Shown: positions 4,424-56,700, counted from the first letter of the stretch. The stretch: 64,000 bases of DNA from a virus (IMGVR_UViG_3300045988_034373:64001-128000), one strand, 5' to 3'. Notes: generated by a model from the sequence alone, not told the origin. Program-made: numbers and translations.

Positions 4424-4428
4424 ATTCA

Positions 4429-4460: not shown

Positions 4461-4481
4461 TACTCTTAACACGTTAATAAG

Positions 4482-4682: not shown

Positions 4683-4733
4683 ACACTTTACAGTTAGTAG
4701 ATTGTTTAGTTATTTGGCTAACAATTTATTTAA

Positions 4734-6454: not shown

Positions 6455-6457
6455 TAA

Positions 6458-39439: not shown

Positions 39440-39679
39440 ATGAAAATTAATTACACATCTGGATGTACCTGCGATAGTTTAACTATTGATGGTAAAGAAT
39501 CTGCGGATTTATCTCCGAAAGTTATTAAAGATGCTATAGTAAGAGCATTGGAGAAGATTGATGATATATCAACTCTTCAAGACATCTTGACAACTGTAGC
39601 TGAGACTGGAGAGTATGAAGATTTAGGACATTGTGAACAATGTGGAGATTGGATAACCTCCTATACTCTTGAAATTTGA
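39440..39679 (+). CDS. hypothetical protein
   Basis: 79-aa ORF. Confidence 0.5.
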   Translation: MKINYTSGCTCDSLTIDGKESADLSPKVIKDAIVRALEKIDDISTLQDILTTVAETGEYEDLGHCEQCGDWITSYTLEI

Positions 39680-39680
39680 T

Positions 39681-40368
39681 ATGAAGGCTGAGGAGTACTT
39701 TGGTGACTGGATTGATGTTATTGACAAAGAGGAATTACGTAGAGTAGCAACTTGGGTTAATAAGATTAATTCAGCTAATCTATGTCCTTTCTCCTAAGAA
39801 CATCTTTAAGGCATTTAGGGCTTGCTCATTTAAGGACTGCAAGGTAGTCTTTCTTGGGCAAGACCCTTATCCTCAAAGAGGGGTAGCTACTGGGATACTA
39901 TTTGGTAATTCAGAAGATACTTCTGAGGAGTATCTATCTCCTTCACTTAAAGTAGTTAAAGAGGCTGCTATTAATTATGAAATTCCCCATAACCTTATAG
40001 AGTTTGACAATACGTTAGAGTCTTGGGCTAAGCAAGGAATCTTAATGATTAATACTGCTCTTACTTGTGAAGTAGGTAAAGTTGGAGCACACTTTGACAT
40101 ATGGAAACCCTTTATGTCTAAGTTGATTCACAACATGAGCTATAAAGACGGAGGTATGATTTATGTTCTGTTTGGTAGTCAAGCTGAGTTATTCAAGAAT
40201 GATATAGTAAACAGTCTGAAGACTATTGAGGTATATCATCCAGCATATTATGCTAGGACTGGTAAGAAGATGCCTAGTAGTGTGTTCACTGATATTAATC
40301 AAGCATTGAAGCAGCAATATAACTATCAAATAGAATTTTACAAGGAGACAGAATATGGAACATGTTAA
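39681..40368 (+). CDS. ung: uracil-DNA glycosylase (family 1-like), interrupted by a +1 frameshift near 39788-39797
   Basis: Frame 0 gives MKAEEYFGDW...NSANLCPFS then TAA (39795-39797). The +1 frame continues SPKNIFKAFRACSFKDCKVVFLGQDPYPQRGVATG...EVYHPAYY. GQDPY lies upstream of the first in-frame ATG (40045). Confidence 0.7.
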
Positions 40369-40572: not shown

Positions 40573-41223
40573 ATGAAAGAACAGAAGTTTGAATTTAGTG
40601 CTAAGAACACCTTCTTCACCTCTGACACTCACTTTGGTCATGCTAACATTATAAAGTTATGCAATAGACCATTTAAGGATGTTGGGGAGATGAATGAAAA
40701 GTTGATTGAGAACTGGAATAAAGTAGTCCCAGAGGACGGTACAGTCTTCCACTTGGGAGATTTTGCCTTCGGTGGTAGTGGACTATGGAACAGTGTTATC
40801 CCTCGTCTGAATGGACAAATCTACTTGATTATAGGTAATCATGATAGAAAGAATCTAAGACAAGGTTATATGGATAAGTTTACAGCTGTATTACCACAGA
40901 TGCAGATTCAAATAGAGAAGAGAAGTATCTACTTGAATCATTATCCATTCCTGTGTTATGGAGGTTCATATCGTGACGATGCTGATGCTGTATGGCAGTT
41001 ATTCGGCCACGTTCATTCTGGTCCTACTAGTTCTGGATTGGATTGTGATAGGTTAGTTCATCTATTCCCATATCAGTATGATGTAGGTGTAGATAACAAC
41101 AATTATACTCCAATCTCTTGGGAAGAAGTAAAGACAAAGATTCAGCACCAAATAGATGAAGGAGTAGAGAAATCTGTCAAGGAACACACAATTCCTGACG
41201 AAGTGTATAAACTAAATGACTAA
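40573..41223 (+). CDS. calcineurin-like metallophosphoesterase
   Basis: Motifs are FFTSDTHFGH (DxH), HLGDFAFGG (GDxx), IIGNHD (GNHD) and FGHVHSG (GHxH). Confidence 0.75.
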   Translation: MKEQKFEFSAKNTFFTSDTHFGHANIIKLCNRPFKDVGEMNEKLIENWNKVVPEDGTVFHLGDFAFGGSGLWNSVIPRLNGQIYLIIGNHDRKNLRQGYMDKFTAVLPQMQIQIEKRSIYLNHYPFLCYGGSYRDDADAVWQLFGHVHSGPTSSGLDCDRLVHLFPYQYDVGVDNNNYTPISWEEVKTKIQHQIDEGVEKSVKEHTIPDEVYKLND

Positions 41224-41728: not shown

Positions 41729-42424
41729 TTGAAAATATGTGTAACGTCTGACTTACATGGCATTCTTCCTAAAATAGAAGAGCCTTGTGAGGTAGTGTTG
41801 ATATGCGGAGATATTATGCCACTGCGTATGCAGAGGAACATCCCTCAGAGTGAAAAGTGGCTAAAGACCACATTCGCCGATTGGGTTAATAATCTCCCAT
41901 GCGAATCAGTAATCATGGTGGGAGGTAATCATGACTTTGCCTTAGCTAATATGTATAGGCAACCTCTAAAGATTAACTCAATCTTGACAAATCCTACCAA
42001 TGGTAAACTGGAACTATTAGATAATGAAGCAACATCCGTTATTAGTAAGGATGGTAAGGTATATGATATATGGGGAACTCCCTATTGTAAAATCTTCGGT
42101 AACTGGGCATATATGTATGAGCCAGAGACTTTGATTAAAGCATATGAATCTATGCCTCAGCATTGCGATATTGTTATATCTCACGATGCACCTAAGCTGT
42201 GTGGTTTAGGTGTTATTCACCAGAGATTTGACAGAGAAGATGCTGGTAATCCTTGGTTAGCTGATGAAATGCTTCGTAAACATCCTAGATACACATTCTG
42301 TGGACATATTCATAGTGGTGAGCATGAACTGCAAACCTTTGACGATATGAAGATGGCTAATGTATCTTTAGTAGATGAAACTTACACTGAAACTTTTAAA
42401 CCTTTATACCTCGATGTCGAATAA
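41729..42424 (+). CDS. calcineurin-like metallophosphoesterase
   Basis: TTG start. Motifs are VTSDLHG (DxH), ICGDIMP (GD), VGGNHD (GNHD), ISHDAP and CGHIHSG (GHxH). Confidence 0.7.
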   Translation: MKICVTSDLHGILPKIEEPCEVVLICGDIMPLRMQRNIPQSEKWLKTTFADWVNNLPCESVIMVGGNHDFALANMYRQPLKINSILTNPTNGKLELLDNEATSVISKDGKVYDIWGTPYCKIFGNWAYMYEPETLIKAYESMPQHCDIVISHDAPKLCGLGVIHQRFDREDAGNPWLADEMLRKHPRYTFCGHIHSGEHELQTFDDMKMANVSLVDETYTETFKPLYLDVE

Positions 42425-42623
42425 TAAAGTTGTAGTACAAGGAGGAGTTGGATTCCCTGGATTGTTGTTTATAGTACTGTTAGTTTGTAAACTATTTGGT
42501 GCTAACATAACATGGTTCTGGGTATTTGCTCCATTATGGATTCCGCTTGCATTAATAGCTGGATTCTTTATTGTATCAATTCTAATTGCAATACTTGTAG
42601 CATGGAAAAGAAAACTACTTTAG
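42414..42623 (+). CDS. small two-TM membrane protein
   Basis: ATG42414 lies near the upstream stop. Hydrophobic stretches are GFPGLLFIVLLVCKLF and WVFAPLWIPLALIAGFFIVSILIAILVAW. Confidence 0.5.
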   Translation: MSNNKVVVQGGVGFPGLLFIVLLVCKLFGANITWFWVFAPLWIPLALIAGFFIVSILIAILVAWKRKLL

Positions 42624-42739
42624 TAGTTGTGGACTTCCAGTATGACTTCTGTCTGCTGGGAGCACCACTCTACGTTCCTGGGTCTGATAAGGCTCTGTGG
42701 AACATTTCTCATTTAATTGAGAATAAGAAAGTTTTTTAA
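42602..42739 (+). pseudogene. nicotinamidase/isochorismatase-family N-terminal remnant (45 aa)
   Basis: MEKKTTLVVVDFQYDFCLLGAPLYVPGSDKAL... matches the PncA N-terminal block (hhhVDxQNDFC..G.L.V.G). It stops after 45 codons and I found no continuation in any frame. Confidence 0.45.
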
Positions 42740-42789
42740 TTCTAGGTTCAAAAGATTACTTAGTCCTATCATAGTACCTAGAGAACTAT

Positions 42790-42909
42790 ATGATTGACTT
42801 CCTAGAGCTAATCCTAGAATTAGTAAATGTTAAATCACGTAATGAGCTAGTGGCTCTGCTTGTTATGGGCGGAGTACTAGCCGTTATCTATTATTTGTTT
42901 CTTGTATGA
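42790..42909 (+). CDS. tiny membrane protein (39 aa, below ORF-track cutoff)
   Basis: MIDFLELILELVNVKSRNELVALLVMGGVLAVIYYLFLV*. Its stop overlaps the next ATG (ATGA). Confidence 0.3.
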   Translation: MIDFLELILELVNVKSRNELVALLVMGGVLAVIYYLFLV

Positions 42910-43157
42910 AATTATATTATTTATTCTTATTGGTAATGTTCTTCTTAATGGGTTGTACTAATTCATCTAACATTAGTGGTCCAGATGTTATAGGGACATC
43001 TAAGATGAATGGGGATGTGTACAGGTACACCATTGATGAGCATGAGTATATAAAAATGGGTAATGGCTTTGCACACTCTGGTGCTTGTAAGAAGTGCAAG
43101 AAGGAGTTGGAAAGTACTATCCGTAAAATAGTTAAGGAGGAACGTTCACAATGGTAG
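42906..43157 (+). CDS. small lipoprotein
   Basis: Signal peptide with lipobox: MKLYYLFLLVMFFLMGC|TNSS. Confidence 0.6.
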   Translation: MKLYYLFLLVMFFLMGCTNSSNISGPDVIGTSKMNGDVYRYTIDEHEYIKMGNGFAHSGACKKCKKELESTIRKIVKEERSQW

Positions 43158-43711
43158 GAGTATTCTTTGGGTCTTTTGACCCACCCCATATTGGTCATGT
43201 TAATATTGTCACAGCTGCACTTAATTCTGGTATTGTTGACAAGGTTATAGTAGTTCCAGCATATAAGAGTGTATGGAAGAACACTGAAACTAAGTGGGAG
43301 TATAGACTCACTATGGCTAAGGAAACCTTTGATAACATTCCTGGAGTAGTTGTGGATGGCATTGAGTATCGTATCGCTAATGGAGAACCATTGCCTACTT
43401 ATAAGACCATTGAAGCATTAAAAGAGATTTATGGTGAGTTTATCATCGTAACATCTGCTGAGACTTATAAGGAGATTCCAAGATGGCAGCATGGTGAGGA
43501 GATACTAAAGGACAATAAGTTCTTAGTAGTAGATGTAGCACACTTTAATAGTGAGGATATTCCACATGATGAAGTGAAGGTTATCTATGCTCCTGATATT
43601 ACAATATGCTCTACAGCTATCAGAAAGTGGGTTGACAATGGTAGAATTATATTGCCATTTGTAACAGATGAAGTAAATTCAATAATTAGAAAGCTTGGGT
43701 TATACAAATGA
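43151..43711 (+). CDS. nicotinamide/nicotinate mononucleotide adenylyltransferase (NadD/NMNAT family)
   Basis: Motifs are GVFFGSFDPPHIGH (GxFxPxHxGH) and C-terminal ICSTAIRKW (ISSTxxR-like). Confidence 0.85.
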   Translation: MVGVFFGSFDPPHIGHVNIVTAALNSGIVDKVIVVPAYKSVWKNTETKWEYRLTMAKETFDNIPGVVVDGIEYRIANGEPLPTYKTIEALKEIYGEFIIVTSAETYKEIPRWQHGEEILKDNKFLVVDVAHFNSEDIPHDEVKVIYAPDITICSTAIRKWVDNGRIILPFVTDEVNSIIRKLGLYK

Positions 43712-44241
43712 GTCAAATCTATGTTTCAGGTCCTTGGTCTTTTGCTTCTGGAGTACAGCAAGTAGTTAAGAGTATAAAGGCTAAATCTAAGGGAGATAAG
43801 GTAGTTTATAGTGAGAAAGGAACTGAATATCAATTCTCTAAACTAGAACAATCCGACTATGTCGTATTCGTGTTGGATGGATTTGCATGGCAACAGAGGT
43901 TAGAAAGTATTTCTAAGGGAATGCTCTCAGAACTCATATGGTGTATTAATCATAGAGTTCCAATGTTCCTAGCTTACAAATCAGCTAACGGATTAGGCAT
44001 ATATGCAACTGAAATAGATGACAATTTAACCTTTAAGGGGATTGCAGGCACTGCTGACACCTTCTATCAGATTATAAACAATCAGTTTGGGACTATTGTA
44101 GCTCCAAATGATACTCCTGGGTTTGTTCTGAGTCACCAAGACACAGTATTAGGGAGTGATTGTGTATATTTGAAGGGAGAGTGGATAGCTGACCCATTAG
44201 ATTTCCTTAATGTTGAACAACCAAAGAGTTACTTTTATTAA
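43708..44241 (+). CDS. hypothetical protein (nucleoside 2-deoxyribosyltransferase-like Rossmann fold?)
   Basis: IYVSGPWSF...SDYVVFVLDGFAW...SKGMLSELIWCINHRVPMFLAY resembles the NDT/DUF4406 layout. Weak and from memory. Confidence 0.45.
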   Translation: MSQIYVSGPWSFASGVQQVVKSIKAKSKGDKVVYSEKGTEYQFSKLEQSDYVVFVLDGFAWQQRLESISKGMLSELIWCINHRVPMFLAYKSANGLGIYATEIDDNLTFKGIAGTADTFYQIINNQFGTIVAPNDTPGFVLSHQDTVLGSDCVYLKGEWIADPLDFLNVEQPKSYFY

Positions 44242-44242
44242 T

Positions 44243-44785
44243 ATGAAGAACTTTCCTTTATTAGACGAGAATGGTAAGGAATGGTGGATTAGCCGTTCTA
44301 TTGCTGTAACAGGATGTATATTTACATTCCTAAATGGTAAGTGGTGTGTGCTAGCCAATAAGAGAGGTGAAGGCACTCCCGATTTCCAGGGAATGTGGAA
44401 TATGCCATGTGGTTACTTAGACTTTGATGAAACTACAGCACAAGCTGTGGTTAGAGAGGTTTATGAAGAGACTGGTGTCAAGGTGAATCCAGAGTACTTA
44501 CACTTCTGGAAGTTCAATGACTCTCCAACTCAGAATAGGCAGAATGTATCATTCAGATACTATGCTCTAGTTGATGCACAGCCAGGTAATATCAGTGTAG
44601 GCACTGGTAATGACAGAGGTGGTGAAGAGGACGAGGTAGAAGCTATTGGATGGATTCCAGTAGACTCTATTGATAAATATCAGTGGGCATTTGGTCACGA
44701 TGAGATTATCAAAGAGTTTACTGAGTGGATGCACTTAGAAGATGGAGATTTGGATATGCAAGACATAGACTTAGACCCAGTATGA
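44243..44785 (+). CDS. Nudix hydrolase
   Basis: An exact Nudix box is present: GYLDFDETTAQAVVREVYEETGV (Gx5Ex7REUxEExGU). Confidence 0.9.
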   Translation: MKNFPLLDENGKEWWISRSIAVTGCIFTFLNGKWCVLANKRGEGTPDFQGMWNMPCGYLDFDETTAQAVVREVYEETGVKVNPEYLHFWKFNDSPTQNRQNVSFRYYALVDAQPGNISVGTGNDRGGEEDEVEAIGWIPVDSIDKYQWAFGHDEIIKEFTEWMHLEDGDLDMQDIDLDPV

Positions 44786-45159
44786 CATACTTTATAAGTG
44801 GACATAGAGACTTAACATGGGAGGAGTTTGCCAGATGGTATGCTCCTGCCATTAGTAAAGTCATTTGTACAGACAGTGAAGCTAAATTTGTTGTAGGAGA
44901 CTGTGAAGGTGCAGATAGAATGGCACAAGACTATCTATCATCCTGTGGAGTTTTCTTTAAGAATGTCACTGTATATCATATGTTTAAAGCTCCTAGATAT
45001 ATGACTAGAAGCTGTGTCCCTACACAAGGAGGTTTTACATCTGATGTAGAGAGGGATACGGCTATGACTGAGCACTCAGATTGTGATATTGCCTTTATTC
45101 GTAAGGGTAAGGAGTCGTCTGGAACTGCTCAAAACATTCTAAGAAGATGGACAAAGTAG
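44782..45159 (+). CDS. DUF2493/YspA-like SLOG-fold protein (tentative)
   Basis: ATGA overlap. YFISGHRDLTWEEF...FVVGDCEGADRMAQDYL resembles the SLOG pattern hhhSGxR...GGxxGADxxA. Confidence 0.45.
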   Translation: MTYFISGHRDLTWEEFARWYAPAISKVICTDSEAKFVVGDCEGADRMAQDYLSSCGVFFKNVTVYHMFKAPRYMTRSCVPTQGGFTSDVERDTAMTEHSDCDIAFIRKGKESSGTAQNILRRWTK

Positions 45160-45329
45160 AAGAATACTTCAATAATAAGAATCTGACTGATAAGGAAAGA
45201 TTTGAAGTCTTGAGGTTACATTTTACTAGTCTATTCCTACAACATCCTAAGATGCTCGAAGTTCTATCTTATAAGGATATAGTACTGAAAGCTAAAGAAT
45301 TTACCAAAGAATATCTAAAGCATGAATAA
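45147..45329 (+). CDS. hypothetical protein
   Basis: 60-aa ORF. Confidence 0.5.
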   Translation: MDKVEEYFNNKNLTDKERFEVLRLHFTSLFLQHPKMLEVLSYKDIVLKAKEFTKEYLKHE

Positions 45330-45741
45330 GTTTATATTCCTAGACATAGATGGGGTTATGAATAGTAATCTCTTCTACTCTGAAAGAACCCAAGATAAGA
45401 GATATAATGATTGGATTAAAGAGCATCCTCAGCGTATAGCTTGGAATGCTTGTAATATTGACCCAAGAGCAGTGGAAAGGCTGAACAGACTTACTGATGC
45501 TACTGGAGCCAAGATTGTTGTATCTTCTACTTGGAGAAGTGATAGTAATTTGCAGGAAGTATTTAACCTTGTTGGAATTAAAGAACCTATACACGATGTA
45601 ACTCCTTATATGAGAAGTAGGCATAGAGGTTCCGAAATCCAAGAGTGGTTAGATAAGCAAACTGAACCTTATCGGTATGTAATCTTTGACGATGATACTG
45701 ATATGTTGGACTCTCAATTACCTTATTTCAATTCAATCTGA
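45322..45741 (+). CDS. HAD-superfamily phosphatase (HAD_SAK RNA-repair-associated type); a C-terminal extension is in the +1 frame to 45832
   Basis: Motifs are FIFLDIDGVMNS, VVSSTWRS and VIFDDDTDM. After the TTT at 45726-45728, the +1 frame reads ...IQSDWLKWGLSDEDVEQAIHILNDTDTTAETHL*. Confidence 0.6.
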   Translation: MNKFIFLDIDGVMNSNLFYSERTQDKRYNDWIKEHPQRIAWNACNIDPRAVERLNRLTDATGAKIVVSSTWRSDSNLQEVFNLVGIKEPIHDVTPYMRSRHRGSEIQEWLDKQTEPYRYVIFDDDTDMLDSQLPYFNSI

Positions 45742-45952
45742 TTGGTTGAAATGGGGTCTAAGTGATGAAGATGTTGAACAAGCAATACATATTCTAAATG
45801 ATACCGATACAACCGCTGAGACACATCTATAATGACCCTTCATTGGATAGAGCACTTCTATTAAGGAAGCTAGCATCTCTCAGACTAAAAGAGTATGATT
45901 AGTATTGAAGAGTATGAGTATTTAAAACATTTAATAAGAAAGGAGAACGAAA

Positions 45953-46417
45953 ATGCTCAGAGAGCAAATGGGTGCACTTATTAAGCAATCAATGCTTGAT
46001 AAGAATGTAAAGAGAACAGAAGTATTGAGAGCTATCAAGAATGAGTTCTTGGTATACCAAACTGCTAAGGGTGCTAAACCTTTAGATGATGCAGCCGAGT
46101 TTACTATTCTTCGTAAGATGGTAAAACAGAGATTGGACAGTAGAGACCAATACATTGCAGCTGGAAGGAAAGACTTAGCCGATAACGAATCCAAAGAGAT
46201 TCTTGTGCTTGAGTCTTTCCTTCCGAGTGAAGCCTCACCTGAGGAAATTACTAAAGCAATCTATGAGGTTATCTCAGAGAAGGGTTGGGGTGACGGAGAG
46301 ACAGGTCCCCAAATCCCGAAGAAGTGCATGGGAGAGGCTATTAAGTTGGTCAAGGCAAAGCTTGCTAATGTAGATGGTAAACTGTTGGCTGATACAATTA
46401 AGACTTATCTTGTATGA
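45953..46417 (+). CDS. GatB/YqeY-domain protein
   Basis: LREQMGALIKQSMLDKNVKRTEVLRAIKNEF...ILESFLP fits the YqeY family pattern. Confidence 0.65.
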   Translation: MLREQMGALIKQSMLDKNVKRTEVLRAIKNEFLVYQTAKGAKPLDDAAEFTILRKMVKQRLDSRDQYIAAGRKDLADNESKEILVLESFLPSEASPEEITKAIYEVISEKGWGDGETGPQIPKKCMGEAIKLVKAKLANVDGKLLADTIKTYLV

Positions 46418-46626
46418 CACTAAAGGAAATAGTGACTCTTCCAGCTGAAGCAAAGTTTACTCATGCAATAGCTGGAACTCTTTACTATAGAATCACAACT
46501 GACAATATAGTAGTAGAGTTTCCTATTGATATGAATGATAAGGATGATGTAGGTACAACTACATTTGTAGCTTCTTATAAGCCTATTTACATTAATGAGG
46601 TACATAAGAAAGGCTATGGAGAATGA
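46414..46626 (+). CDS. hypothetical protein
   Basis: 70-aa ORF with an ATGA overlap. Confidence 0.5.
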   Translation: MTLKEIVTLPAEAKFTHAIAGTLYYRITTDNIVVEFPIDMNDKDDVGTTTFVASYKPIYINEVHKKGYGE

Positions 46627-46729
46627 AACTTTGATTACAATTGATAAGTCTAAGTTAAAGTAATTGTACTGTGTAATAATTAACTAATATGTCTTACTCT
46701 ACTCGAATTTCATAAAATACTTGGTTTAA

Positions 46730-46761
46730 TTTGGTAATACTGCTTATAATGCTTATATTTG
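46730..46761 (+). promoter_or_regulatory. Bacteroidota-type promoter heading the giant-protein block
   Basis: AATTTGGTAAT (TTTG at 46730-46733), a 20-nt spacer, then TATATTTG at 46754-46761. It sits in a 174-nt intergenic gap. Confidence 0.6.
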
Positions 46762-46800
46762 CAGAAATTAAGTGGTTAAACTGTTTAAACGTATTAATTT

Positions 46801-47115
46801 ATGAAAATCGAAGAGAAATTTAAAAAATTCCAACAAGGTGGTGCTGCACCTCAGCCAGGAGCTGAACAAGCAGGAGGAGCACCAGCCGAGGGAGCACCAG
46901 CAGAAGGTGGTGCACCTGCTGAGGGTGGACAAGACCCAATGCAACAGATTCTACAAGTAGCTGCTCAGGCAGTTCGGACACAGAATTGTGAAGCTGCGAT
47001 GGCTGTGTGTCAAGCCCTAATGCAAATCGCTCAAGGTGGTGCTGCTCAGGAACAAGCTCCTCAAGAGGAACCAACTTTTGCAAGGAAAGGTGCTAGACTA
47101 GTAAGAGTAAGATAA
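46801..47115 (+). CDS. small Ala/Gly/Pro/Gln-rich low-complexity protein (104 aa)
   Basis: It has its own promoter (46730-46761) and terminator (47133-47166). It contains KFQQGG, three APAEG repeats and a basic tail ARKGARLVRVR. It is locally GC-rich. Confidence 0.65.
   Translation: MKIEEKFKKFQQGGAAPQPGAEQAGGAPAEGAPAEGGAPAEGGQDPMQQILQVAAQAVRTQNCEAAMAVCQALMQIAQGGAAQEQAPQEEPTFARKGARLVRVR
46873..46929 (+). repeat. in-frame imperfect tandem repeat (GG)APAEG x3
   Basis: gga gga gca cca gcc gag / gga gca cca gca gaa / ggt ggt gca cct gct gag ggt gga. Confidence 0.7.
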
Positions 47116-47132
47116 TTAGTCAACAAGGTAAG

Positions 47133-47166
47133 AAGGGGCGTATATTAATTATATGCTCCTTTTTTG
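47133..47166 (+). terminator. intrinsic terminator
   Basis: A stem of about 12 bp (AAGGGGCGTATA / TATATGCTCCTT, two G-U pairs), followed by a T run. Confidence 0.65.
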
Positions 47167-47179
47167 TTATACATAGTAT

Positions 47180-50100
47180 ATGTCACAAGTAATAAGAAAA
47201 TTTGAGAACTCTGGTAAGATAGAACAATCTAAGCCAGAACTATTCGAGAGAAGTGGCGTTGGTAAGTACAATAAGGCTGATTTAGTTGCTGGACTATATA
47301 GGAACATAGATACCTATATAAAGAATAATAATCTTAGCGGAGACAAAGCAGTTTCATTTAGGAACTCTGCTAACCAGTTTATTAAAGGTATTGAGAGTGG
47401 AACTATTAGTATGAATGGTGATGGTACATTCTCTGATGCAACAGGTAGTATGGCTAGTTCAGGAAAGTTTGATAAGAACTGGATAGGACGTAAGAAGGAC
47501 ACTACAAATAATGCCTTTAATTTAGTTGGTGACTATGCACTAGACTACATCAATCAGATGCAACAATACACTGAGCCAGCAGCTAAACCTAAAGAGAAGT
47601 TCAATACCAACAACTTCTTAACTAAAGAGATTTCTAAAAGATGGTATGGTGGTAACGATATAGATTTCGGTAACTGGTTCAAGAACAGAGGTGAGCAAGA
47701 CCGTAATGCACTACTTGGAGAAATCTTCAATAATGCAGACTATAATCAACTATACCAAGATTATGATTGGACTGACACTGGAATTAACAGTGCAGAAGAT
47801 TTAGCTAATCGCGGAAGAGCATTTAGTACAGCCATTTCTAATAATACATTAGATAATGATGACTATAATACCTTTGCTACATTAGGTGGTAGTGGTTTAG
47901 ATAAGTTCTTGAAGGAGACTTCTATGGAAGCGGCTCCAACACCAGAGCAGGACAAAATGAAGACATGGGAAGCTGAGGCTAGAGCAGCTGGGGCAACCAC
48001 TCCAGAAGCAATCGCTGCATTTGTAAAAGGTAAACAACAGGATGAAGAGGCTACTAACCATGCTATCATTGAACAACAAGCCAAGAGAGATAGTAAGATG
48101 GAGAGGGACGCTTTCTTCAATGATTATGCAGTCAAAAATCCATTCAAAGAGACTATTCAATCAGGATATACTCCTAGCTCTGTGTCATATAAGCCAGAAG
48201 ACTTTGATAAGACTATAAGGGATTTCTATAATAACAATATTGACCAATACCTAAACGATAACCTATCTAGAGATTGGTTTAGGGCTGGTAACACTCAGCA
48301 CATTGCTAATCACATGGATTATCTGATTAATCATCTAAAGGTGAATCTTCCAGATGCAGGTGATGGGTTTGTGGCAATTCCTTCCACATTTGATTACAAC
48401 AATTACACTACAATGGTGTATAATCCAACAACTAGACAATATAAAGAGTCGTCTATGTTGGTAAATGATGCCCTAAGACGTCTTGCAGACGTTCATTATG
48501 ATAGTACTCGTACACCTAAGAGAGAGAATGGTGGTGTGCTTTATATGCAATTTGGAGGAACGTATAGTGCTGGGGCTAACTACAGTAACTATCAACAACA
48601 AAGGGCGCAAGAGAAGAAGACTAAGGAAGAGGAAACCGTCAAGCAGAAAGCTGAATCTAAGGGAAGAACTGTTGAAGAACAACAAATAGCTGATAGAAAG
48701 CCTGGAAGTATTACTAGTGGTGATTGGACTGGTGCTGACTATACTAGACTAGCATCTATAGTTGCAGACATTGGTTCTATTGGTGCTGCCTATGTTCCTG
48801 TATATGGTACAGCTGTATCAGCTGGATTAGGTATAGGTAGTTCTTTAGCTAATTATGGTGCTGACCTGTCAGAAAATGGATTTAAGTTGGGTGACTTAGG
48901 TGGATTAGCTATGAATCTAGGTTTAGATGCAGTAGGTCTAATTCCTGGACTAGGTACAGCAGCAAAGGGCAGTAAGATGCTCAAGACAGCTGTTAAATAT
49001 ATACCTAAAACATTATCCTTATTAGCGGCTTACAACTATACTGGTCCAGCTATAGAGTCTATGAAGAAAGCTATGTCTTCTGATGCTGAACTTACAGTGG
49101 ATGACTGGAGAAATATAGCAGAAGGATTTAAACTTGTACTTCAAGGAGGTAAAGGAATCAAGAGAGGCTACCAAGCTAAGAACCTAAAGAAAGACTTAGC
49201 AACTGGCAACAAGGTTCTTACTACATTAGGGGGTAAGGAGGTATCTGTAACTCCCGCTGAACTATCCGAAATCCGTTCTTATAGGAGGATTGAAGACCAA
49301 CAAGCTGCGCTGCAGTTATTAAAGAAGGATGATAACCTACAACTCGCTGGAGATTTAAATAAGAGGTGGTTCAATCCATCCCGTTATCTTCCCAACTCTA
49401 ATATTAGAGATGAATATGACTTTAATAAGACTGTAAAGAAGAGAACCTCTCAAGGCATAATAGAAGTGCCTAGAGTGTACAGTAACTCAGATAAATATAT
49501 TGCAGCTACCATGCAACGTAGTACTCCTCAAATTCCAGGAATTGATGAGTTGTCAGTAAAATATAACGACTGGAAGTATGGGGTTAAAAAGCCTAAAGCA
49601 AAAGCTAAAGGAAGTAAGACCTCTGATACAAAACCTTTACTAGCTCTTCCAGCCCCAGGTCAAACTCACAGAGTATTTACTATGGGTGGGGGACAACCTA
49701 GAGTACCTCAAGATGTAACTAACTCTTCTAATCTTAGAAAGCCAGGAAGCTATACTGATAGAGCTGTTCCAGTAGGAGGTACCCCAGTACAATCTCCTGA
49801 TGCTAATGCAGTTAGAGCAGTTAATACTATCAACTCTATATTAGAGCCATTTGTTCCTAAATCTAAGAACTTACCTGCTGTTATTCCTGCATCAAGAAAT
49901 GCTGAAAAGGTAGTAGCCTCTCAGACTGTACAGCCCAGTCAAAGATTGGACCAGTTCATTGAGGGGCAAATTCCAGGCAGAAGACAGTATGGTAGGCAGA
50001 GAGCTAAAACTGAGAGAGAATACAGAGATGTATTCCACCCAGCAGCTGAACGAGAGTACAACCAAGTATGGGATGAAGCTGTTAGAGGTAGAAAAGACTT

Positions 50101-51970
50101 TGGATATGAGGAAGTATTCCCTAAGAGAAGTCCATATGCACCCCCAACTCCTACAGAGGTGTATATAGTACCAGAGGGAGCTATGAAAGACCCTAACGCA
50201 AGGTATCTATGGGAGCTTATTAATAAAAAACCTAATACTGCACATATTAAAAGAGATAGCCAACCTCATAAAGTTAAGTCTAAGAAGAAGAAAACTTCAA
50301 AGGATGATAAAGTCACTAAGAAGGCTGAGGGAGGAGTAGTTCAATTTCTACAAGATGGTAAGACTGTAGGTAGAATCAAAGCTAAAGATATGTCTGGTTG
50401 GGACAGAGCACAGGCTTTAGCTAACTATGATTGGATTGCTGATTATGATAGATGGGCATCACAACACGAAGGTCCAGATGATGCTACTGAGTCTTATATA
50501 ATATCATTCAATGGTGGTGAAGATATATATGACCAATTAACATCTAAGACTGGAGATTACTTCGGAGGTAAGTACAATTATTCAGTACAAGACCCATTAG
50601 CTAAACATAGACAGATTACTTTTAGAGGTACTAATCAAGGCTTTGATGATTTAATCAGAAAGGGTATTGTAGGTTATGGTACTACAGAAGGTAATTCTGG
50701 ATTTGATATATATGCTGGTGATAGAACTGGTAATAGAACACTTGCAAGAGGACTATCCGCAGAGGATGTAGCTCGCTTTAACAAGCAGTTAGCAACGAGA
50801 GGAATGGAACTCTATGATAAGGGCAATGGTGCTTATAGGTTAAGAAGATTACAACAAAAACCTACTGAATTACCAGAGGTTGTTGTAACTGCTGATGCAC
50901 CTAAAGCTCCTACGGCTACTAACCCTTCAGCTATTAATCCAGCTGCATCTAAGAAAGGTAAAGGCTTCAATCTTGGTGTAATGCCAGAAGATGTTATCGC
51001 GTTAGGTAGAATGGTAGGTGGATTAGCAGCTAATAACAAGGCAGCTAAATTATATAAGGAAGGTCTAAAACCAACTTTATTAGACACATTTGAGAATACT
51101 GTTCCACTACAAGGTAACTTCCAAGCAGTTACTAATGCTGAACAACAAGCAGGCAATTTAGAATCTGTAGCTGCAAGACCTAGAACTTCTGATGCTTCAT
51201 TGCAATTAGCAGGAGAGTTAGAAGCTAGTGATAGAGCGGGTCAAGCTAGATTCCAAGGTGGTCTACAGGATGCAGAAATGTTCTATAAGACCAGAATGTT
51301 AGGACAGCAAGAATCCGATGCAGCTAAGGCAAGAAGAGTTGATGTGGCTAATAGGAATAGGGCTTCAATGAATCAGATTGATGCAGCTAAGAAGCAAATT
51401 GATGCAGCTAGAGTTACATCTAATTATCAGAATGTTATTGCTCCTTACTTAGCTGGAGTTGAGAACCAATTCGCTCAGAAGAGAGCTATGAATCAACAGT
51501 TAGACATGGAAGAAGCTCAGAGAGAGGCTGAAAGGACTTATTCTCCAGAGTTTGATAGACTAACTAATGATTACAATACAGCCTATAAAGCTTATGGTGC
51601 TGCAAATAAGAATGATTACACTGGCTGGGAGACATCTAACGAGTATAAGTCGTTAATAAATAGAAGAAAGTCCCTTAACGATAATGTATCTCAATTCCTA
51701 TTGGATAGGAGAAGAGGAATTATGGGTTCTCCATATATGTTCCAAGTTAAGAGGAACTCTTCTACCAAGACTCCATATGTTAAGTCTGGAGGTAAGCTAA
51801 GTGCAGCTGACAGAGAGAAGTTACAAAGAGCAAGAGATTTTAATAAGAGATTGCTAGAGGACAATAAGCAGTTCCACAAAGATATTATGGAATCTAAGAG
51901 AGAACATAACAAGTTAATAATGTCTATGTCTTCTCTAACTTCTGAGTTAATAAAGAAAGCAATGTCATGA
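47180..51970 (+). CDS. giant protein (1596 aa) with Gly-zipper hydrophobic segment; probable virion/ejected protein
   Basis: Uninterrupted 4.8-kb ORF. A hydrophobic Gly-rich region lies at about 48730-49060 (IVADIGSIGAAYVPVYGTAVSAGLGIGSSL...GLAMNLGLDAVGLIPGLGTAA). The C-terminus is coiled-coil-like. Confidence 0.85.
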   Translation: MSQVIRKFENSGKIEQSKPELFERSGVGKYNKADLVAGLYRNIDTYIKNNNLSGDKAVSFRNSANQFIKGIESGTISMNGDGTFSDATGSMASSGKFDKNWIGRKKDTTNNAFNLVGDYALDYINQMQQYTEPAAKPKEKFNTNNFLTKEISKRWYGGNDIDFGNWFKNRGEQDRNALLGEIFNNADYNQLYQDYDWTDTGINSAEDLANRGRAFSTAISNNTLDNDDYNTFATLGGSGLDKFLKETSMEAAPTPEQDKMKTWEAEARAAGATTPEAIAAFVKGKQQDEEATNHAIIEQQAKRDSKMERDAFFNDYAVKNPFKETIQSGYTPSSVSYKPEDFDKTIRDFYNNNIDQYLNDNLSRDWFRAGNTQHIANHMDYLINHLKVNLPDAGDGFVAIPSTFDYNNYTTMVYNPTTRQYKESSMLVNDALRRLADVHYDSTRTPKRENGGVLYMQFGGTYSAGANYSNYQQQRAQEKKTKEEETVKQKAESKGRTVEEQQIADRKPGSITSGDWTGADYTRLASIVADIGSIGAAYVPVYGTAVSAGLGIGSSLANYGADLSENGFKLGDLGGLAMNLGLDAVGLIPGLGTAAKGSKMLKTAVKYIPKTLSLLAAYNYTGPAIESMKKAMSSDAELTVDDWRNIAEGFKLVLQGGKGIKRGYQAKNLKKDLATGNKVLTTLGGKEVSVTPAELSEIRSYRRIEDQQAALQLLKKDDNLQLAGDLNKRWFNPSRYLPNSNIRDEYDFNKTVKKRTSQGIIEVPRVYSNSDKYIAATMQRSTPQIPGIDELSVKYNDWKYGVKKPKAKAKGSKTSDTKPLLALPAPGQTHRVFTMGGGQPRVPQDVTNSSNLRKPGSYTDRAVPVGGTPVQSPDANAVRAVNTINSILEPFVPKSKNLPAVIPASRNAEKVVASQTVQPSQRLDQFIEGQIPGRRQYGRQRAKTEREYRDVFHPAAEREYNQVWDEAVRGRKDFGYEEVFPKRSPYAPPTPTEVYIVPEGAMKDPNARYLWELINKKPNTAHIKRDSQPHKVKSKKKKTSKDDKVTKKAEGGVVQFLQDGKTVGRIKAKDMSGWDRAQALANYDWIADYDRWASQHEGPDDATESYIISFNGGEDIYDQLTSKTGDYFGGKYNYSVQDPLAKHRQITFRGTNQGFDDLIRKGIVGYGTTEGNSGFDIYAGDRTGNRTLARGLSAEDVARFNKQLATRGMELYDKGNGAYRLRRLQQKPTELPEVVVTADAPKAPTATNPSAINPAASKKGKGFNLGVMPEDVIALGRMVGGLAANNKAAKLYKEGLKPTLLDTFENTVPLQGNFQAVTNAEQQAGNLESVAARPRTSDASLQLAGELEASDRAGQARFQGGLQDAEMFYKTRMLGQQESDAAKARRVDVANRNRASMNQIDAAKKQIDAARVTSNYQNVIAPYLAGVENQFAQKRAMNQQLDMEEAQREAERTYSPEFDRLTNDYNTAYKAYGAANKNDYTGWETSNEYKSLINRRKSLNDNVSQFLLDRRRGIMGSPYMFQVKRNSSTKTPYVKSGGKLSAADREKLQRARDFNKRLLEDNKQFHKDIMESKREHNKLIMSMSSLTSELIKKAMS

Positions 51971-53781
51971 GAATAACTTCAAATATAGATAAGCTACAAC
52001 AGGGTGGAGGTATTCCACCCTTTGTTAGCTATACTAATGTTCCAAGACCTCAACCCACTGCCCCTTATAGTACATCAGATACTAAACAAGCAGCTGGAGA
52101 AGAATCAGAAGGAGGGTTTGGTTTACTAGATAAGAACATGGTGAAGATGCTTTATGAGAAGGGCTTACCAAGTGATGTGGAGCAATTCTTAGACCAATCT
52201 GGGTTGTTCTCTGAATCCATAATGTCTAATCCATTTGAAAAGACAAACGGAGCTGCTCAGTATAAAGCATTATTAAAGATATTACCTAAGATAGCTATGA
52301 ATAAGGAAGAGTACAATAGAGCTATACAAGAAGCTACTAAGAATAATGCTCTTAAAGAAACAGCTATTGATACAGATGGCAGAGTATTTGCCATTAGCCC
52401 AGACGGACAAGTTACTAAGAAATTTATAAGCCAGTTAGAGGAAGGGGAACAGACTCTAACAGTTGGACAAATGGCTGAGAATAGAGCCTATAGTCAAGGT
52501 TTGGCATTTAACAGTAATGCTATTACAGCTATTGCTAACAGTACAAGCATTGAGCAAATAAATAAGACTATATGGGAAGCGATTAAGAATTTAGGTTCCA
52601 ATACAAGAGCCAATGAATACTTTAGGTCTAAGGACGAAAGGAAAGCTAAGGCTGGAATTGACAAACTATTGGAAGAAGGAGCTGATGGTGTTTATAAGAT
52701 TAACTCTAAGTCTATAACCCAAGATGCTCAAGCTAAATATGCTTTAAACTATATATTATCAACATTACCATCTAATCAGAAGGTGTTATTACAGGATTAT
52801 GCAAGAAAGTCTGGATTAGATTTGAAGACTGGTCCACTACAAATTATCACTAGTATGATACAATCTGGTATTAGTTCTACAGAAGAAATGGGAGTTAGTT
52901 ATGACAAACAAGCTACCAATGGTGCTAATACTGATGCAAATGGTAATAAGAAGACTAGGGCATTTGATATTCCTATGATGATTGTAACTGGTGATGGTCT
53001 TCCTAAAGAGAATGCCAGAATTAGCTTTGGAAGTAATTATGCTATTGATGTACAAGCACAAAGATTGCCATTCATTCCAGGTAGTGATGGCAAGCCTATT
53101 GGTCCGACTTCCTTAATGGGGGCTTTAAGTGGTCAGTTAGGTAGTGTAGTTAATAAAGATGCTGTACACGTTGGTAACCAAAGACTTGATGCTACTAAGC
53201 TAAATCAACTATACTACGATGGTACTGGAGTGTCTACAATGGAGTTACCTTATAAGTTGGATGAGAATGGACAAGCAGTTCCAGACTTTGATGTTATAGG
53301 TGCTTATAAGGCAGCTGTAGATGCAATCAATAAGGAAGGTAAGGATGTTACTAAGGCTCAAGTAAATCAAATATTCCAAGAACGAGGATTGAATAGATAT
53401 TTTAATGAAGATGGAAGTTTAAATAGGGATAACTTTATGAGGTTTGCTGGTATATCAGTTATTGGCGATGATGAAACCTTTGAACACCCTGATGATAACT
53501 CCGACTTCTTTATGCCTATTACTGATAATAGGTTGACAGCACAGATAAGTGCAACACTAGGTACTAAGTCAAACCCTATGGATATGGGAGACCTATACAG
53601 AACTATTGCTTATGTACCTATTTATGACTCTCCGAGTCTAGCAGGTGCAGCATCTGGTAACTTCTCATGGATTAAGGATGAGGGGGCTATGATGGAAATA
53701 GCAAAAGAACAGCAACTCCGTAACGCTAGACAGGCATATAACAACAATATAACTAAAAGTCAATTATTAAATGGACAATAA
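51967..53781 (+). CDS. large protein (604 aa), probable virion-associated
   Basis: ATGA overlap with the upstream gene. The N-terminus carries IDKLQQGGG. No enzymatic motif seen. Confidence 0.8.
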   Translation: MRITSNIDKLQQGGGIPPFVSYTNVPRPQPTAPYSTSDTKQAAGEESEGGFGLLDKNMVKMLYEKGLPSDVEQFLDQSGLFSESIMSNPFEKTNGAAQYKALLKILPKIAMNKEEYNRAIQEATKNNALKETAIDTDGRVFAISPDGQVTKKFISQLEEGEQTLTVGQMAENRAYSQGLAFNSNAITAIANSTSIEQINKTIWEAIKNLGSNTRANEYFRSKDERKAKAGIDKLLEEGADGVYKINSKSITQDAQAKYALNYILSTLPSNQKVLLQDYARKSGLDLKTGPLQIITSMIQSGISSTEEMGVSYDKQATNGANTDANGNKKTRAFDIPMMIVTGDGLPKENARISFGSNYAIDVQAQRLPFIPGSDGKPIGPTSLMGALSGQLGSVVNKDAVHVGNQRLDATKLNQLYYDGTGVSTMELPYKLDENGQAVPDFDVIGAYKAAVDAINKEGKDVTKAQVNQIFQERGLNRYFNEDGSLNRDNFMRFAGISVIGDDETFEHPDDNSDFFMPITDNRLTAQISATLGTKSNPMDMGDLYRTIAYVPIYDSPSLAGAASGNFSWIKDEGAMMEIAKEQQLRNARQAYNNNITKSQLLNGQ

Positions 53782-56700
53782 GAAGCCAAACGATTGGATG
53801 CTGAATGTGTTACAGAATCCCAGTTTCTCTTTATCTGATTTTAAAGCAGTAGGGATTGATGGTAATAACACTTCCATTGAAGATAGGGAAGTCTATGCTA
53901 ATAACAAGATTATACAATCAAATCCACAGTTCCAGGATAGTGATGGCAACTTCGACAATACAAAGTTTAACCAATTCTATGATGGAGCTTTACAGTCATA
54001 CCAACTATTAGCTAATAATACGTTTAATGAAACTGTAATGGATGAGGCTACCTTTGGCTTTAATAATATTTGGGCGCCTAAGGAGTCTAGCAAGAGAACT
54101 CAACCAGAGTTCCAAATCAATAGGACATTCAATCCTGACAGAAGGAAGATGGGAGTAGAGAAAGTAGGGTTCGTTAGTGATAGAACCCTTACTGCTGCTG
54201 AGATAGCCCAAACTCAGAAAGTATTTGACCCAGAGACGGGTGAGTGGGATGAGTCTCCTAATGATGCATGGCTTGGTAGGAATTGGTTCCAACCAGTAGC
54301 ACTAGCACAATGGGATTCAGATGATTACCACATTGACCCAGAAACTAATAGAAAGGTAAGACATAGAAAGGGTGAGTTGAAGTTAAATGAGGAAGGTACT
54401 TATTATTATGAGAAGTTAGGTAGTAGAGAACCTTATGGTAGACAATTATTATCTCCATTTGATGTTCTAACTACTGATGGCTCTAAAGCTAATAAGTATG
54501 ACTTCTTTGATTCTGATAGCTTAGATAAGAGTGTATTTGGAAGTATAATGAAGAATACATTCAAGATTGCTCCTATGTTCGTACCTTATGTAGGTCCAGT
54601 ATACATTGGGCTAGGTATTGCTAATGAACTAGCTAAGGTATTACCTATTATATATAAGACTACATTCGGATTAGCTGGGGCATCTACTGACTGGGCTAAT
54701 AAGTTAGAAGGATTTGCATACTCTATGGATAGTGGAACATCTGAATATGCTAAGCAACATCCTTGGGCAGCAGAGAATATTCTTAACATGGTTGGTGATG
54801 TAGCTAAACAACTATATGAACAAAGGTGGATATTTACTAATGCTCCGAGACTATTCAAGTCCTATGGCATATCATCTAAGAATGGTACTCCATCAGAATT
54901 AGATAAGCAAATTGCTAAGTTAGCCGAGGAATATACTCAGACTGCTGTTAAGGACATTCCTAAGGTATTAAAGTCCTTAGAGGCTACTGGTAGTCTTGAT
55001 ATTATACAGAAGGAAGCTTTAGCTAAAGCTACTATATGGGGACAGAATTATATGAAGAGTTACGAGAACTGGGGTAAACACTTATCTCGTCTTTACATGA
55101 CTGGTACAGCTTCATATAACGCCTTTAGTGATGCTAAGGAAGAAGGGGCAAGTGATGAACAAGCCGCTGCTGTATTCTGGGGATATATGGCTGGAATGTA
55201 TGCTTTAATGTCTACCGATATTGGAGAACACGTACTTCCAGAATTGAGAATGGATAAAGCTCAAATTAGAAAACTTATCCAAGATGTAAGCCAACAAGCC
55301 AAGCAGAGTATATCTACTAATGCTATTAAAGCCGAGTCTAAAGAAGCAAGTAAGAATATATTTGCTAAGTTGTTTAATAGTGCTAAATCATTTGCGCAGA
55401 ACAACTATAAAGCTATTGCTGATGGTTCTACTTCTATCATGTCTAATGCTCTTGCAGAAGGTGTGGAAGAAGTATCGGAAGAAGTATTATATGATGTTAC
55501 TAAAGCAACATTTAATGCTATCTCATATTTCACTGGTAACGAAAGAAGACTATCTGCATTTAATGATATGGCTTCTCGTTATAGTATGTCATTCTTTGGA
55601 GGTGCTATCGGTGGTGGTATGTTCCAAGGTATAAATGACATTAAGATTAGAAAGTCCTACGATTCTAGTAATATGCAAGCTAATCAGGAACTTATCTACT
55701 TAATCAGACAAGGTCGAGGTGAAGAGATTTACAAGGCTTTGGAAGATATGAAGAAGAAGGGAGTTCTTGGTGATAAGAACCTATCTGCAACTAAGGTTGA
55801 CAAGGTAGATGATAAGTATGTATATCAACAAGGAACTGACAAAGATAACCAAAATGATGCTATATATAGTCTGATGAAAGATTATGTTAGCAACATAGAA
55901 CAAGTTCTATCTGTAGAGGGAATGAAGCTATCTGATGCTTCTCTGTTAGATAAGCAAATGCTATCAGAGTTAAGGTATCAAGAGTTATTTAAGAATGCAC
56001 CTTCTACTGGTAAAATCCTACAAGACTTCAATAATCTTGCTGATAGGTTCTTAACCTTACATAGTAAGATTGATGAAATCAATGCTACCTATTCTGATGA
56101 GAATGGTAAGAAGAGTAAGGAGTATGCTGATGCTATGGCTGCTGTTCAACAGCAAATAGACGATGCTAAGAAAGAACAATATGAGTTCTTGCATACTGGT
56201 ATGAGAGGTAAGTACTTGGGAATGATGATGTTCTCAGCTAACCCTGTAATCAGTAAGCCATTCATTGATATGAACTTTAGAATGTATGCAGAGTCTAAAT
56301 ATAATAAGGACTTTGAATTACTATCTGAAGATGATATAGCTAAAGCTAAGGAGGATTACAACAACTACTTACAATATGATGCCAATTCTAAATTAGATAT
56401 GGCTTACGGTGTATTCCGTAATATGAATGAGAAGCTATCTCCTATCTTCCAGGAAACTGGAGAGTTGGGCTATAAGCAATATGCACAACTAAAGAGGAAT
56501 TTCTACAATGCCTCTATGTCTTTAACTGGTGCTGATGGTGTTGCTAAACCTACAACTATATCTGATATACTTGGTGGCATGTTCGGTAATAAGAATGCTA
56601 CTGACGAGGATATACTTGAAATGGCTGAGAACCTAAAGAAGCCTAGAATAAAGGAAGCTAAAGAACATCCATTTGATGAAATATCAAGGTTCTTATCCTA

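Follow-up and report, generated by a model that had tools for sequence, protein, structure and literature searches.

Introduction

Nicotinamide adenine dinucleotide (NAD+) is a central battleground in the conflict of phages with bacterial immunity, and its restoration by phages is established for the pathways NARP1 and NARP2 (bioRxiv 10.1101/2024.02.11.579819) and NARP3 (PMC13464706). Excess NAD+ production, consumption of phosphoribosyl pyrophosphate (PRPP) and toxicity of the cloned operon have been described for NARP2 (bioRxiv 10.1101/2024.02.11.579819), and accessory enzymes are currently being added to phage NAD+ restoration (bioRxiv 10.64898/2026.01.28.702374; PMC13232231). Besides these three experimentally demonstrated pathways, the Preiss-Handler route represents a fourth, for which there are so far only catalogue entries from gut phage genomes: a pncB-nadD-nadE cluster is present in the gut jumbo phage Kuafu_71 (PMC11662467), and human-gut viral contigs carry pncA, pncB, nadD and nadE (PMC11780533). 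Viral NAD systems were surveyed in 2022, with NadV, NadM and NadR as the only ones listed (PMC9503650). Here we analysed a stretch of 64,000 nucleotides of viral DNA (IMGVR_UViG_3300045988_034373:64001-128000, in the following the window) containing a string of NAD-related genes at 42602-45159. This region is likely to be the remnant of a phage-borne Preiss-Handler island for NAD+ synthesis or resynthesis in a crAss-like gut phage of ~182 kb. Catalogues of phage genes already include the Preiss-Handler pathway, of which the window represents a degraded example.

The window and its intact relatives resemble the gut-phage Preiss-Handler clusters in that the relatives hold PncA, PncB, NadD and NadE and the hosts are probably Bacteroidota, whereas the window itself has lost three of the four enzymes. 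The island genomes are crAss-like and, with ~182-190 kb, below the 200-kb jumbo cut-off. The companion genes (Nudix, SLOG, HAD_SAK_2, YqeY and ORF2) and the decay described below are mentioned neither in PMC11662467, in which the word Nudix occurs zero times, nor in PMC11780533. In the literature we found no description of Preiss-Handler islands in large crAss-like phages, of fixed Nudix-SLOG-HAD-YqeY companions or of repeated loss of PncA, PncB and NadE. NARP2 of Vibrio phage KVP40, comprising Nampt and a bifunctional NMNAT/Nudix protein of the NadM type, shares with the island the pairing of an adenylyltransferase with a Nudix domain and a PRPP-consuming salvage step; for NARP2, a counter-defence role is demonstrated. 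In contrast to NARP2, the island adenylyltransferase is of the NadD type, Nudix is a separate gene with ORF2 in between, and the phosphoribosyltransferase of the relatives is PncB, which acts on nicotinate, hence NadE and PncA are required as well. NARP3 (PnuC and NadR) and NARP1 (Adps and Namat) are likewise NAD+-restoring phage operons. The Macro-domain phosphatase extension of NARP1 shows that such operons can acquire accessory phosphatases (bioRxiv 10.64898/2026.01.28.702374), a precedent for the HAD and metallophosphoesterase genes beside the island. Neither PnuC nor NadR is among the island genes scanned, and the chemistry differs from that of both operons.

Results and Discussion

Deletion of pncA, pncB and nadE

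Close relatives of the window (contigs of 90-98% nucleotide identity and up to 188 kb) carry, in this order, two metallophosphoesterase genes, a 69-aa open reading frame (ORF), PncA (194 aa), PncB (387 aa), an ABC-like ATPase, NadE (294 aa), a lipoprotein, NadD, ORF2, Nudix, ORF4, a 68-aa ORF, HAD_SAK_2, a 61-aa ORF and YqeY, the ABC-like ATPase and the lipoprotein being present in some relatives only. By blastn, the window is colinear with two of these loci (L003 and L015) apart from a single gap. Missing in comparison to L003 are its positions 3917-7027 (3,111 bp), and in comparison to the closest relative, L015, which is devoid of the ABC-like gene, 2,669 bp. The junction (42732-42735) reads AAGAAAGT/TT/TTTAATTCTAGG at the base level and shows no repeat, merely 1-2 nt. 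Ahead of it lies a stub of pncA, encoding nicotinamidase (42602-42739, + strand), which is 100% identical to residues 1-44 of L003 PncA; codons 1-44 of 194 are followed by Phe and then, two codons past the cut, by a stop that arose through the deletion. The sequence behind the junction begins 63 nt ahead of the nadE stop. This 3′ remnant (42723-42797, + strand; reading frame FNSRFKRLLSPIIVPRELYD followed by the stop) comprises the last 24 codons of the gene for the NH3-dependent NAD synthase, and tblastn aligned it at 42723-42794 to NadE residues 271-294 with 87.5% identity. A single deletion of 2.7-3.1 kb has thus left pncA without its 3′ three quarters and nadE with no more than 24 codons, and has taken pncB completely. 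Since fragments of both pncA and nadE flank the junction, the event was a deletion in the lineage of the window rather than an insertion in the relatives. The junction was identical (100%) in an independent Logan assembly (run ERR1137206), and it was found in no sampled genome apart from the source sample.

The deleted parts (the remainder of pncA, pncB and the remainder of nadE) are not located elsewhere within the window, and the relatives' PncB as tblastn query gave no match anywhere in the 64 kb. From the Preiss-Handler set only NadD is present as a full gene. An earlier note, made from the sequence of the window, had recognised the pncA stub and described the string as NAD-centred, which holds; the ORFs are located at the coordinates given there, on the + strand. 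Its proposal of a variant module that differs in gene complement did not hold, as the 2.7-3.1 kb deletion made the present complement. Nampt is absent from the window, as the note had said: the PncB query detected no NAPRTase-family gene in the 64-kb window, and the locus does not qualify as NARP2. With an ordinary Preiss-Handler pathway (PncA, PncB, NadD, NadE) as ancestral design, no Nampt is expected. The earlier observation was largely correct and its interpretation partly so, in being NAD-centred but not in being a new design. This illustrates that one metagenomic genome can pass a decayed island off as a new one.

By homology, PncA of the intact island would turn nicotinamide into nicotinate, which PncB would convert with PRPP into nicotinate mononucleotide (NaMN); NadD would make nicotinate adenine dinucleotide (NaAD) from NaMN, and NadE would make NAD+ from NaAD. 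The window keeps the adenylyltransferase gene and the accessory genes, all intact and coupled by stops and starts. Such a remnant would not rebuild NAD+ from nicotinamide unaided; the host would have to supply NaMN as well as the amidation of NaAD by host NadE, and the remnant would speed only the step from NaMN to NaAD, possibly also that from nicotinamide mononucleotide (NMN) to NAD+.

The window has a G+C content of ~37% with genes on one strand throughout the 64 kb, and is 100% identical to a 182,000-bp ENA scaffold. Its DNA polymerase is 46-56% identical over the full length to those of cr111_1, IAS virus, crAss001 and others; on this protein rests the assignment of the phage to the large-genome crAss-like (Crassvirales) gut phages, with a genome of ~182 kb. 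The host probably belongs to the Bacteroidales. A megablast search with 8 kb of the window against 50,697 deposited phages gave no match. The Preiss-Handler pathway is now placed in a clade of highly abundant crAss-like phages of the human gut.

Recurrent decay of the island

An IMG/VR scan with NadD yielded 58 loci, and a tblastn matrix was built from 14 reference proteins and 67 loci. Loci with NadD of at least 90% identity were assigned to clade A and those with ~46% to clade B. Decay was counted for the 55 loci containing both flanks. The island is intact in 33 of them, at least one of PncA, PncB and NadE is lost in 13, and ORF4, HAD or part of NadD in 11; as most IMG/VR loci derive from one data set (3300045988), these counts are not population frequencies. 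Nudix is intact at all 55 loci and NadD is truncated at merely two. Clade A contains at least ten different breakpoints (the window, L012, L026, L032, L037, L041, L002, L010/L017, L024 and L018), with deletions 0.24-3.8 kb long and 0-23 nt of overlap at the joins in pairwise comparison. Clade B adds several more coverage patterns in the tblastn matrix.

At least 11 in-frame chimeras, consisting of the N-terminus of one island gene and the C-terminus of another, were found in public metagenomes (P0083, P0088, P0090, P0093, P0095-P0097, P0105, P0138, P0145, P0185, P0231). They came up among the database homologs of ORF2 and ORF4 and begin like PncA, NadD, NadE or NAPRTase but end like ORF2, ORF4 or YqeY, with joins often at short shared motifs (GAG/TAD, TSA/D, GAD/RMAQ). 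The chimeras are further events of decay, and the joins point to microhomology-mediated deletions.

Across clade A the ratio of nonsynonymous to synonymous substitution rates (dN/dS) was 0.04 for NadD, 0.04 for Nudix, 0.06 for HAD_SAK_2, 0.12 for YqeY, 0.14 for ORF2 and 0.17 for ORF4. Going by these ratios, the retained genes, all of full length in the window, are under purifying selection and working in clade A. The deletion in the window is recent; in Nudix, the window and intact relatives show 100% identity, and retention of the remaining genes here therefore says little about need.

The arrangement extends to other lineages. A GenBank gut-phage scaffold of clade B (MT835470.1, L009, 117 kb) carries PncA-PncB-NadE-AAA-NadD-Nudix-ORF4, a fusion of HAD_SAK_2 with YqeY and a deoxynucleoside monophosphate (dNMP) kinase. 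Two further lineages (L073 and L076) show the orders NadE-...-AAA_28-NMNAT-Nudix-ORF4-84aa-YqeY and PncB-NadE-...-NadD-ORF2-Nudix-66aa-YqeY, respectively. NadE, usually together with PncA and PncB, is located upstream in the intact members of every lineage examined. Nudix and YqeY were found in all island lineages examined; most of these also have ORF4 and HAD_SAK_2, and some have ORF2. ORF4 is absent from L005/L006, L038 and L076, and HAD from L038, L072/L073 and L076. Across lineages that share only 40-60% protein identity, NadD-(ORF2)-Nudix-SLOG keep this order and overlap at their stops and starts. The earlier view of the SLOG-like and NDT-like genes as additions stands insofar as SLOG is conserved by NadD and Nudix in several crAss-like lineages, and ORF2 in some. 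One lineage, L072, with AAA_28 upstream of NMNAT, had been considered as a sign of interchangeable precursor-supplying enzymes; this was dropped, as L073 has NadE upstream too. The inserted P-loop ATPases differ by lineage and site: an ABC/SMC-like protein of 230 aa (L001/L003 5521-6213), an AAA protein of 367 aa (L009 3499-4602) and an AAA_28 protein of 186 aa (L073 1642-2202).

In analogy to the NARP pathways, the intact island probably sustains the supply of NAD+ in infected cells, also when defences deplete it. That TIR, SIR2 or Thoeris-type immunity exerts pressure, as the earlier note had suggested, is plausible by analogy with NARP1-3, but a constant pressure is hard to reconcile with pathway genes being lost so often. 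A Tad2-like gene that had been cited in favour of it (28606-28815, 69 aa) was not confirmed: no Pfam family (Tad2/DUF2829) matched at E≤10, and the sole PHROG match (E=0.07) was to a family of unknown function. The PRPP-consuming enzymes are lost repeatedly, probably where their cost exceeds the benefit; the PRPP consumption and toxicity described for NARP2 would provide a plausible reason for the frequent loss of the PRPP-using part. The repeated simple deletions give natural genotypes with and without the island for asking whether it pays only against NAD-depleting defences, and the fixed partners (Nudix, a small SLOG protein, HAD phosphatase, YqeY and sometimes ORF2) are good candidates for new activities in the processing of ADP-ribose or nucleotides. 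This genome itself is of less interest than these conserved partners and the series of natural deletions.

NadD and Nudix

The gene at 43151-43711 (+ strand, 186 aa) was confirmed by its sequence as a NadD-type nicotinate/nicotinamide mononucleotide adenylyltransferase, as the earlier note had called it. The translation contains PPHIGH (residues 11-16) and CSTAIRK (residues 153-159), which correspond to the nucleotidyltransferase motifs (H/T)xGH and ISSTxxR, the match to PF01467 (E=6e-13) passes the Pfam cutoff, and TIGR00482 matches over the full length (E=4e-26). In the PDB, NadD structures were retrieved (2h29 with E=8e-12, 8aih and 1kam).

The canonical Nudix hydrolase recognised earlier is likewise confirmed. 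It is encoded at 44210-44785 (+ strand, 191 aa, or 180 aa from an ATG at 44243), carries an exact Nudix box, GYLDFDETTAQAVVREVYEETGV (consensus GX5EX7REUXEEXGU), and matches PF00293 with E=8e-17 and 62 bits in comparison to a cutoff of 21.1. The protein matches ADP-ribose-type Nudix domains, namely those of NadM-Nudix (2qjt) and NrtR (3gz8, 3gz5, NF050029), and MutT-type models as well (TIGR00586, E=5e-8). A proline is located 16 residues past the box; in the ADP-ribose pyrophosphatase subfamily of Nudix proteins, a proline is reportedly found ~15-16 residues after it. The enzyme probably hydrolyses ADP-ribose (ADPR) or a related dinucleotide to AMP and ribose-5-phosphate.

ORF4, a protein with a predicted SLOG fold

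ORF4 (44782-45159, + strand, 125 aa) contains the motifs YFISGHRD, VGDCxGxDxMAQ, ERDxxMT and SGTAQNILRR. An AlphaFold2 (AF2) model based on a 28-sequence alignment reached a mean predicted local distance difference test (pLDDT) score of 94.5, and the best Foldseek matches in the PDB were ShosA (8zva), YpsA (2nx2), many LOG enzymes and TRPM N-terminal domains, all of the SLOG superfamily, with probabilities of 0.97-1.0 and template modelling scores of 0.63-0.69 but E-values of just 7e-3 to 0.17. At the level of the predicted fold, ORF4 is thus SLOG-like. Sequence and profile searches gave no significant Pfam or PDB match; the N-terminal region matches phrog_289 (E=8e-9). PF10686 (formerly DUF2493) was the commonest weak Pfam match, obtained for four of 28 family members with a best E of 0.02; the ORF4 of the window did not match it, and the family consensus reached 12.8 bits in comparison to a cutoff of 28.2. 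Running the family consensus sequences of ORF4 and ORF2 against Pfam brought no gain. From the earlier designation of this gene as DUF2493/SLOG-like, the SLOG fold therefore stands and membership in PF10686 does not.

With the SLOG superfamily (LOG, YpsA, YspA/PF10686 and DprA-like ShosA), ORF4 shares the fold, the glycine-rich loop and a GT-containing loop. It differs in its smaller size of 125 aa and in the lack of a significant Pfam or PDB sequence match to SLOG members. LOG enzymes carry a catalytic Glu at the latter loop; in ORF4 this loop, SGTAQN, has no acidic residue at that position, and the protein may bind rather than hydrolyse its ligand. More generally, ORF4 probably binds or cleaves nucleotide-derived products.

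When the window was compared with L001-L036, genomes with neighbouring Nudix proteins of 91-100% identity were found to have ORF4 alleles that are 70-99% identical at the protein level. This divergence and the top dN/dS of ORF4 suggest allele exchange or faster evolution. In L071 (2578-3801), a 209-kb contig, an IS605 OrfB/Cas12f-like TnpB is inserted by the ORF4 homolog, in comparison to the otherwise identical L070.

ORF2

ORF2 (43708-44241, + strand, 177 aa) possibly contains an NDT/TIR-like Rossmannoid domain, as indicated by alignments, AF2 and Foldseek. A conserved N-terminal alpha/beta domain (residues 1-125) precedes a tail that varies among relatives but closes with an invariant SYFY. 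An exhaustive profile search yielded 227 relatives; in a 73-sequence sample, Y41, G71 and E75 are invariant. The AF2 model has a pLDDT of ~75 for the N-terminal domain and low confidence for the tail. With the NDT/DUF4406/TIR-like Rossmannoid N-glycosidases, ORF2 shares the strand-helix order of its predicted N-terminal domain, in which an invariant G-x3-E is located at the helix start past strand 3 and is followed by a 'PIY' strand. In contrast to NDT and DUF4406 proteins, it remained under every Pfam cutoff. For PF05014, ORF2 reached E=0.035 and 14.7 bits (cutoff 28.8), two of the 73 family members matched with a best E of 0.0028, and the consensus gave E=0.12; DUF4406 was never matched in Pfam by ORF2 or family members. 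PDB sequence and profile searches with ORF2 gave nothing meaningful, and hhalign of the family against a PF15891 protein of the NDT superfamily was negative. Foldseek against the PDB was generic and placed an NDT 38th and a TIR domain 49th. NDT enrichment was observed only in the Foldseek search of viral models, in which NDT-annotated entries occupied ranks 3, 4, 11, 12, 17, 18 and 23 with E-values of 1e-3 to 0.1. Profile and structure checks of the genes starting at 44782 and 43708 gave a predicted SLOG fold for the former and no NDT profile match above cutoff for the latter, and of the NDT/DUF4406-like layout noted earlier for ORF2 there remains the enrichment among viral models. NDT-like is a weak call and the best available guess. 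ORF2 probably binds or cleaves nucleotide-derived products.

Residues 127-177 (44086-44241) are hypervariable in length and sequence, predicted to be disordered and always end in SYFY; they might represent a docking peptide. One ORF2 relative, P0231, contains a NAPRTase_N domain; a natural fusion was rejected as the explanation, since the protein is a deletion chimera of PncB 1-177 and the C-terminal part of an ORF2.

Alternative explanations

Several observations weigh against the locus as the remnant of a Preiss-Handler island with the functions outlined above. NadD, with 92.1 bits, falls short of the equivalog cutoff of TIGR00482 (112.45) and is a divergent member that may prefer either NaMN or NMN. 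MutT-type and ADPR-type families score similarly for the Nudix protein. ORF4 homologs occur without NAD genes in all Lak megaphages deposited (15) as well as in two further large contigs, and remote ORF2 relatives were also found away from NAD genes; the tie of SLOG and ORF2 to NAD genes is contextual, not obligate. The counter-defence purpose is drawn by analogy, and the concentration of loci in one data set adds to these points. The Lak homologs (Prevotella Lak megaphages, e.g., L008 6001-6378, Lak-B2, MK250021.1) are ~55% identical to ORF4; no NAD genes were recognisable within 6 kb of them, in genomes whose recoded stop codon makes ORF calling unreliable.

These points bear on what else the string of genes might be. 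One possibility, which we regard as unlikely, is that NadD-(ORF2)-Nudix-SLOG-HAD-YqeY functions as a self-sufficient core without PncA, PncB and NadE, e.g., in ADP-ribose recycling or the degradation of immune signals. The window would then carry a complete system, which is the idea of the earlier note in its most favourable form. This possibility is favoured by the survival of these genes after independent loss of the pathway genes in two clades (the window, L012, L026 and L032 in clade A; L040, L048, L050, L051 and L059 in clade B), by Nudix being intact at 55 and NadD at 53 of the 55 loci, by the tight stop/start coupling and low dN/dS, and by the fusion of HAD with YqeY in L009. However, the intact members of every examined lineage have NadE, usually with PncA and PncB, upstream, ORF4 and HAD are themselves lost in L010, L011, L016, L017, L005, L006 and L038, and the window deletion is too recent, given the identical Nudix, to count for much. 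Somewhat less probable still is the stronger proposal that the core is an undescribed self-contained module turning cleavage products of NAD+, or immune signals derived from ADPR, back into usable precursors. Nudix would then split ADPR or molecules of the cyclic ADP-ribose type, HAD would strip blocking phosphates and NadD would complete the dinucleotide; the SLOG protein and ORF2, as N-glycosidase-like proteins, would release ribose-5-phosphate or sequester signals, and the Preiss-Handler genes would be an optional add-on, gained and lost with the defence content of the host.

About as doubtful as such a module is a role of Nudix, ORF2, SLOG, HAD_SAK_2 and YqeY in nucleotide-pool or RNA-repair housekeeping, the genes standing beside NAD genes merely as part of a nucleotide-metabolism region. 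The island neighbours ThyX, a UDG-family gene, NrdD, RNA ligase and DNA ligase, with a dNMP kinase in relatives, would fit this explanation, as would the match of Nudix to MutT-type models, the name HAD_SAK_2, which derives from RNA-repair proteins, and SLOG homologs found alone or beside sugar-modification genes. It is less easily reconciled with an order and overlaps of NadD-(ORF2)-Nudix-SLOG that persist at just 40-60% protein identity, with a Nudix protein that over its length matches the corresponding domains of NadM and NrtR, and with ORF2, which at 36-45% identity is still placed between NadD and Nudix in other lineages. That the deletion is an assembly artefact and the true genome carries an intact island is very improbable. 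The scaffold is metagenomic, and strain mixtures can yield chimeric joins; yet the Logan assembly agrees over the junction, no repeat is present there that extends beyond 1-2 nt, and many relatives carry other deletions of like kind. The degraded Preiss-Handler island remains our preferred explanation for the locus.

Flanking genes and further features of the window

Upstream of the pncA stub lie two metallophosphoesterase genes on the + strand. The first (40573-41223), for which relatives match PF00149 weakly, precedes the island in clade A and, with ~70% identity, in clade B; the second (41729-42424; PF00149, E=3e-10) adjoins pncA in both clades and is deleted together with the pncA 5′ end in L002. 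Both form a syntenic upstream flank, and their membership in the island is uncertain. An 82-aa ORF for a small membrane protein (42375-42623, + strand; phrog_1374, E=2e-12) overlaps the pncA start; in relatives a 69-aa gene is called at this position. Behind the stub follow a 39-aa ORF with a hydrophobic, putatively transmembrane C-terminus (42790-42909, + strand), whose stop overlaps the next start via ATGA, and an 83-aa lipoprotein-like ORF with an LMGC lipobox (42906-43157, + strand; dN/dS 0.13), variably present upstream of nadD in relatives. From three small membrane or lipoprotein ORFs that had been placed after the stub, the 39-aa and 83-aa ORFs are found there, and the 82-aa transmembrane ORF precedes and overlaps it.

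Downstream of ORF4, a 60-aa ORF (45147-45329, + strand) overlaps both neighbours and has no family match; a 68-aa gene takes its place in relatives. It is followed by two conserved island companions, a 139-aa protein of the HAD_SAK_2 phosphatase family (45322-45741, + strand; PF18143, E=1e-24) and a 154-aa YqeY-family protein (45953-46417, + strand; PF09424, E=1e-29). These two are adjoining separate genes in the window and fused into one of 301 aa in L009 (7479-8384), which suggests that the proteins may act together.

The coupling of four genes by overlapping stops and starts, described earlier, holds for NadD/ORF2 and Nudix/ORF4, which overlap by ATGA; for ORF2/Nudix it depends on the start, with an overlap of 32 nt or, if Nudix starts at the ATG at 44243, a spacing of 1 nt. 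The coupling is in fact longer, comprising eight ORFs that overlap head to tail from 42790 to 45741, i.e., from the 39-aa ORF through HAD_SAK_2. A scan of 42300-47200 for sigma-70 promoters and terminators found sites no more numerous than in shuffled sequence.

Three consecutive very large ORFs (1,596, 604 and 2,896 aa) occupy 47180-62461, a position at which large virion or RNA-polymerase proteins are encoded in crAss-like phages. They have no PHROG match at E≤1e-5, and the DxDGD motif of RNA polymerases was not present in the 2,896-aa ORF. The UDG-family gene (39669-40368; 228 aa in relatives) is frameshifted by an extra T in a T-run near 39789, the window reading CCTTTCTCC versus CCTTCTCC in L003, which yields a 42-aa ORF and an out-of-frame remainder. 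The frameshift is also present in the source scaffold; either the gene is truly a pseudogene or both sequences share a homopolymer error.

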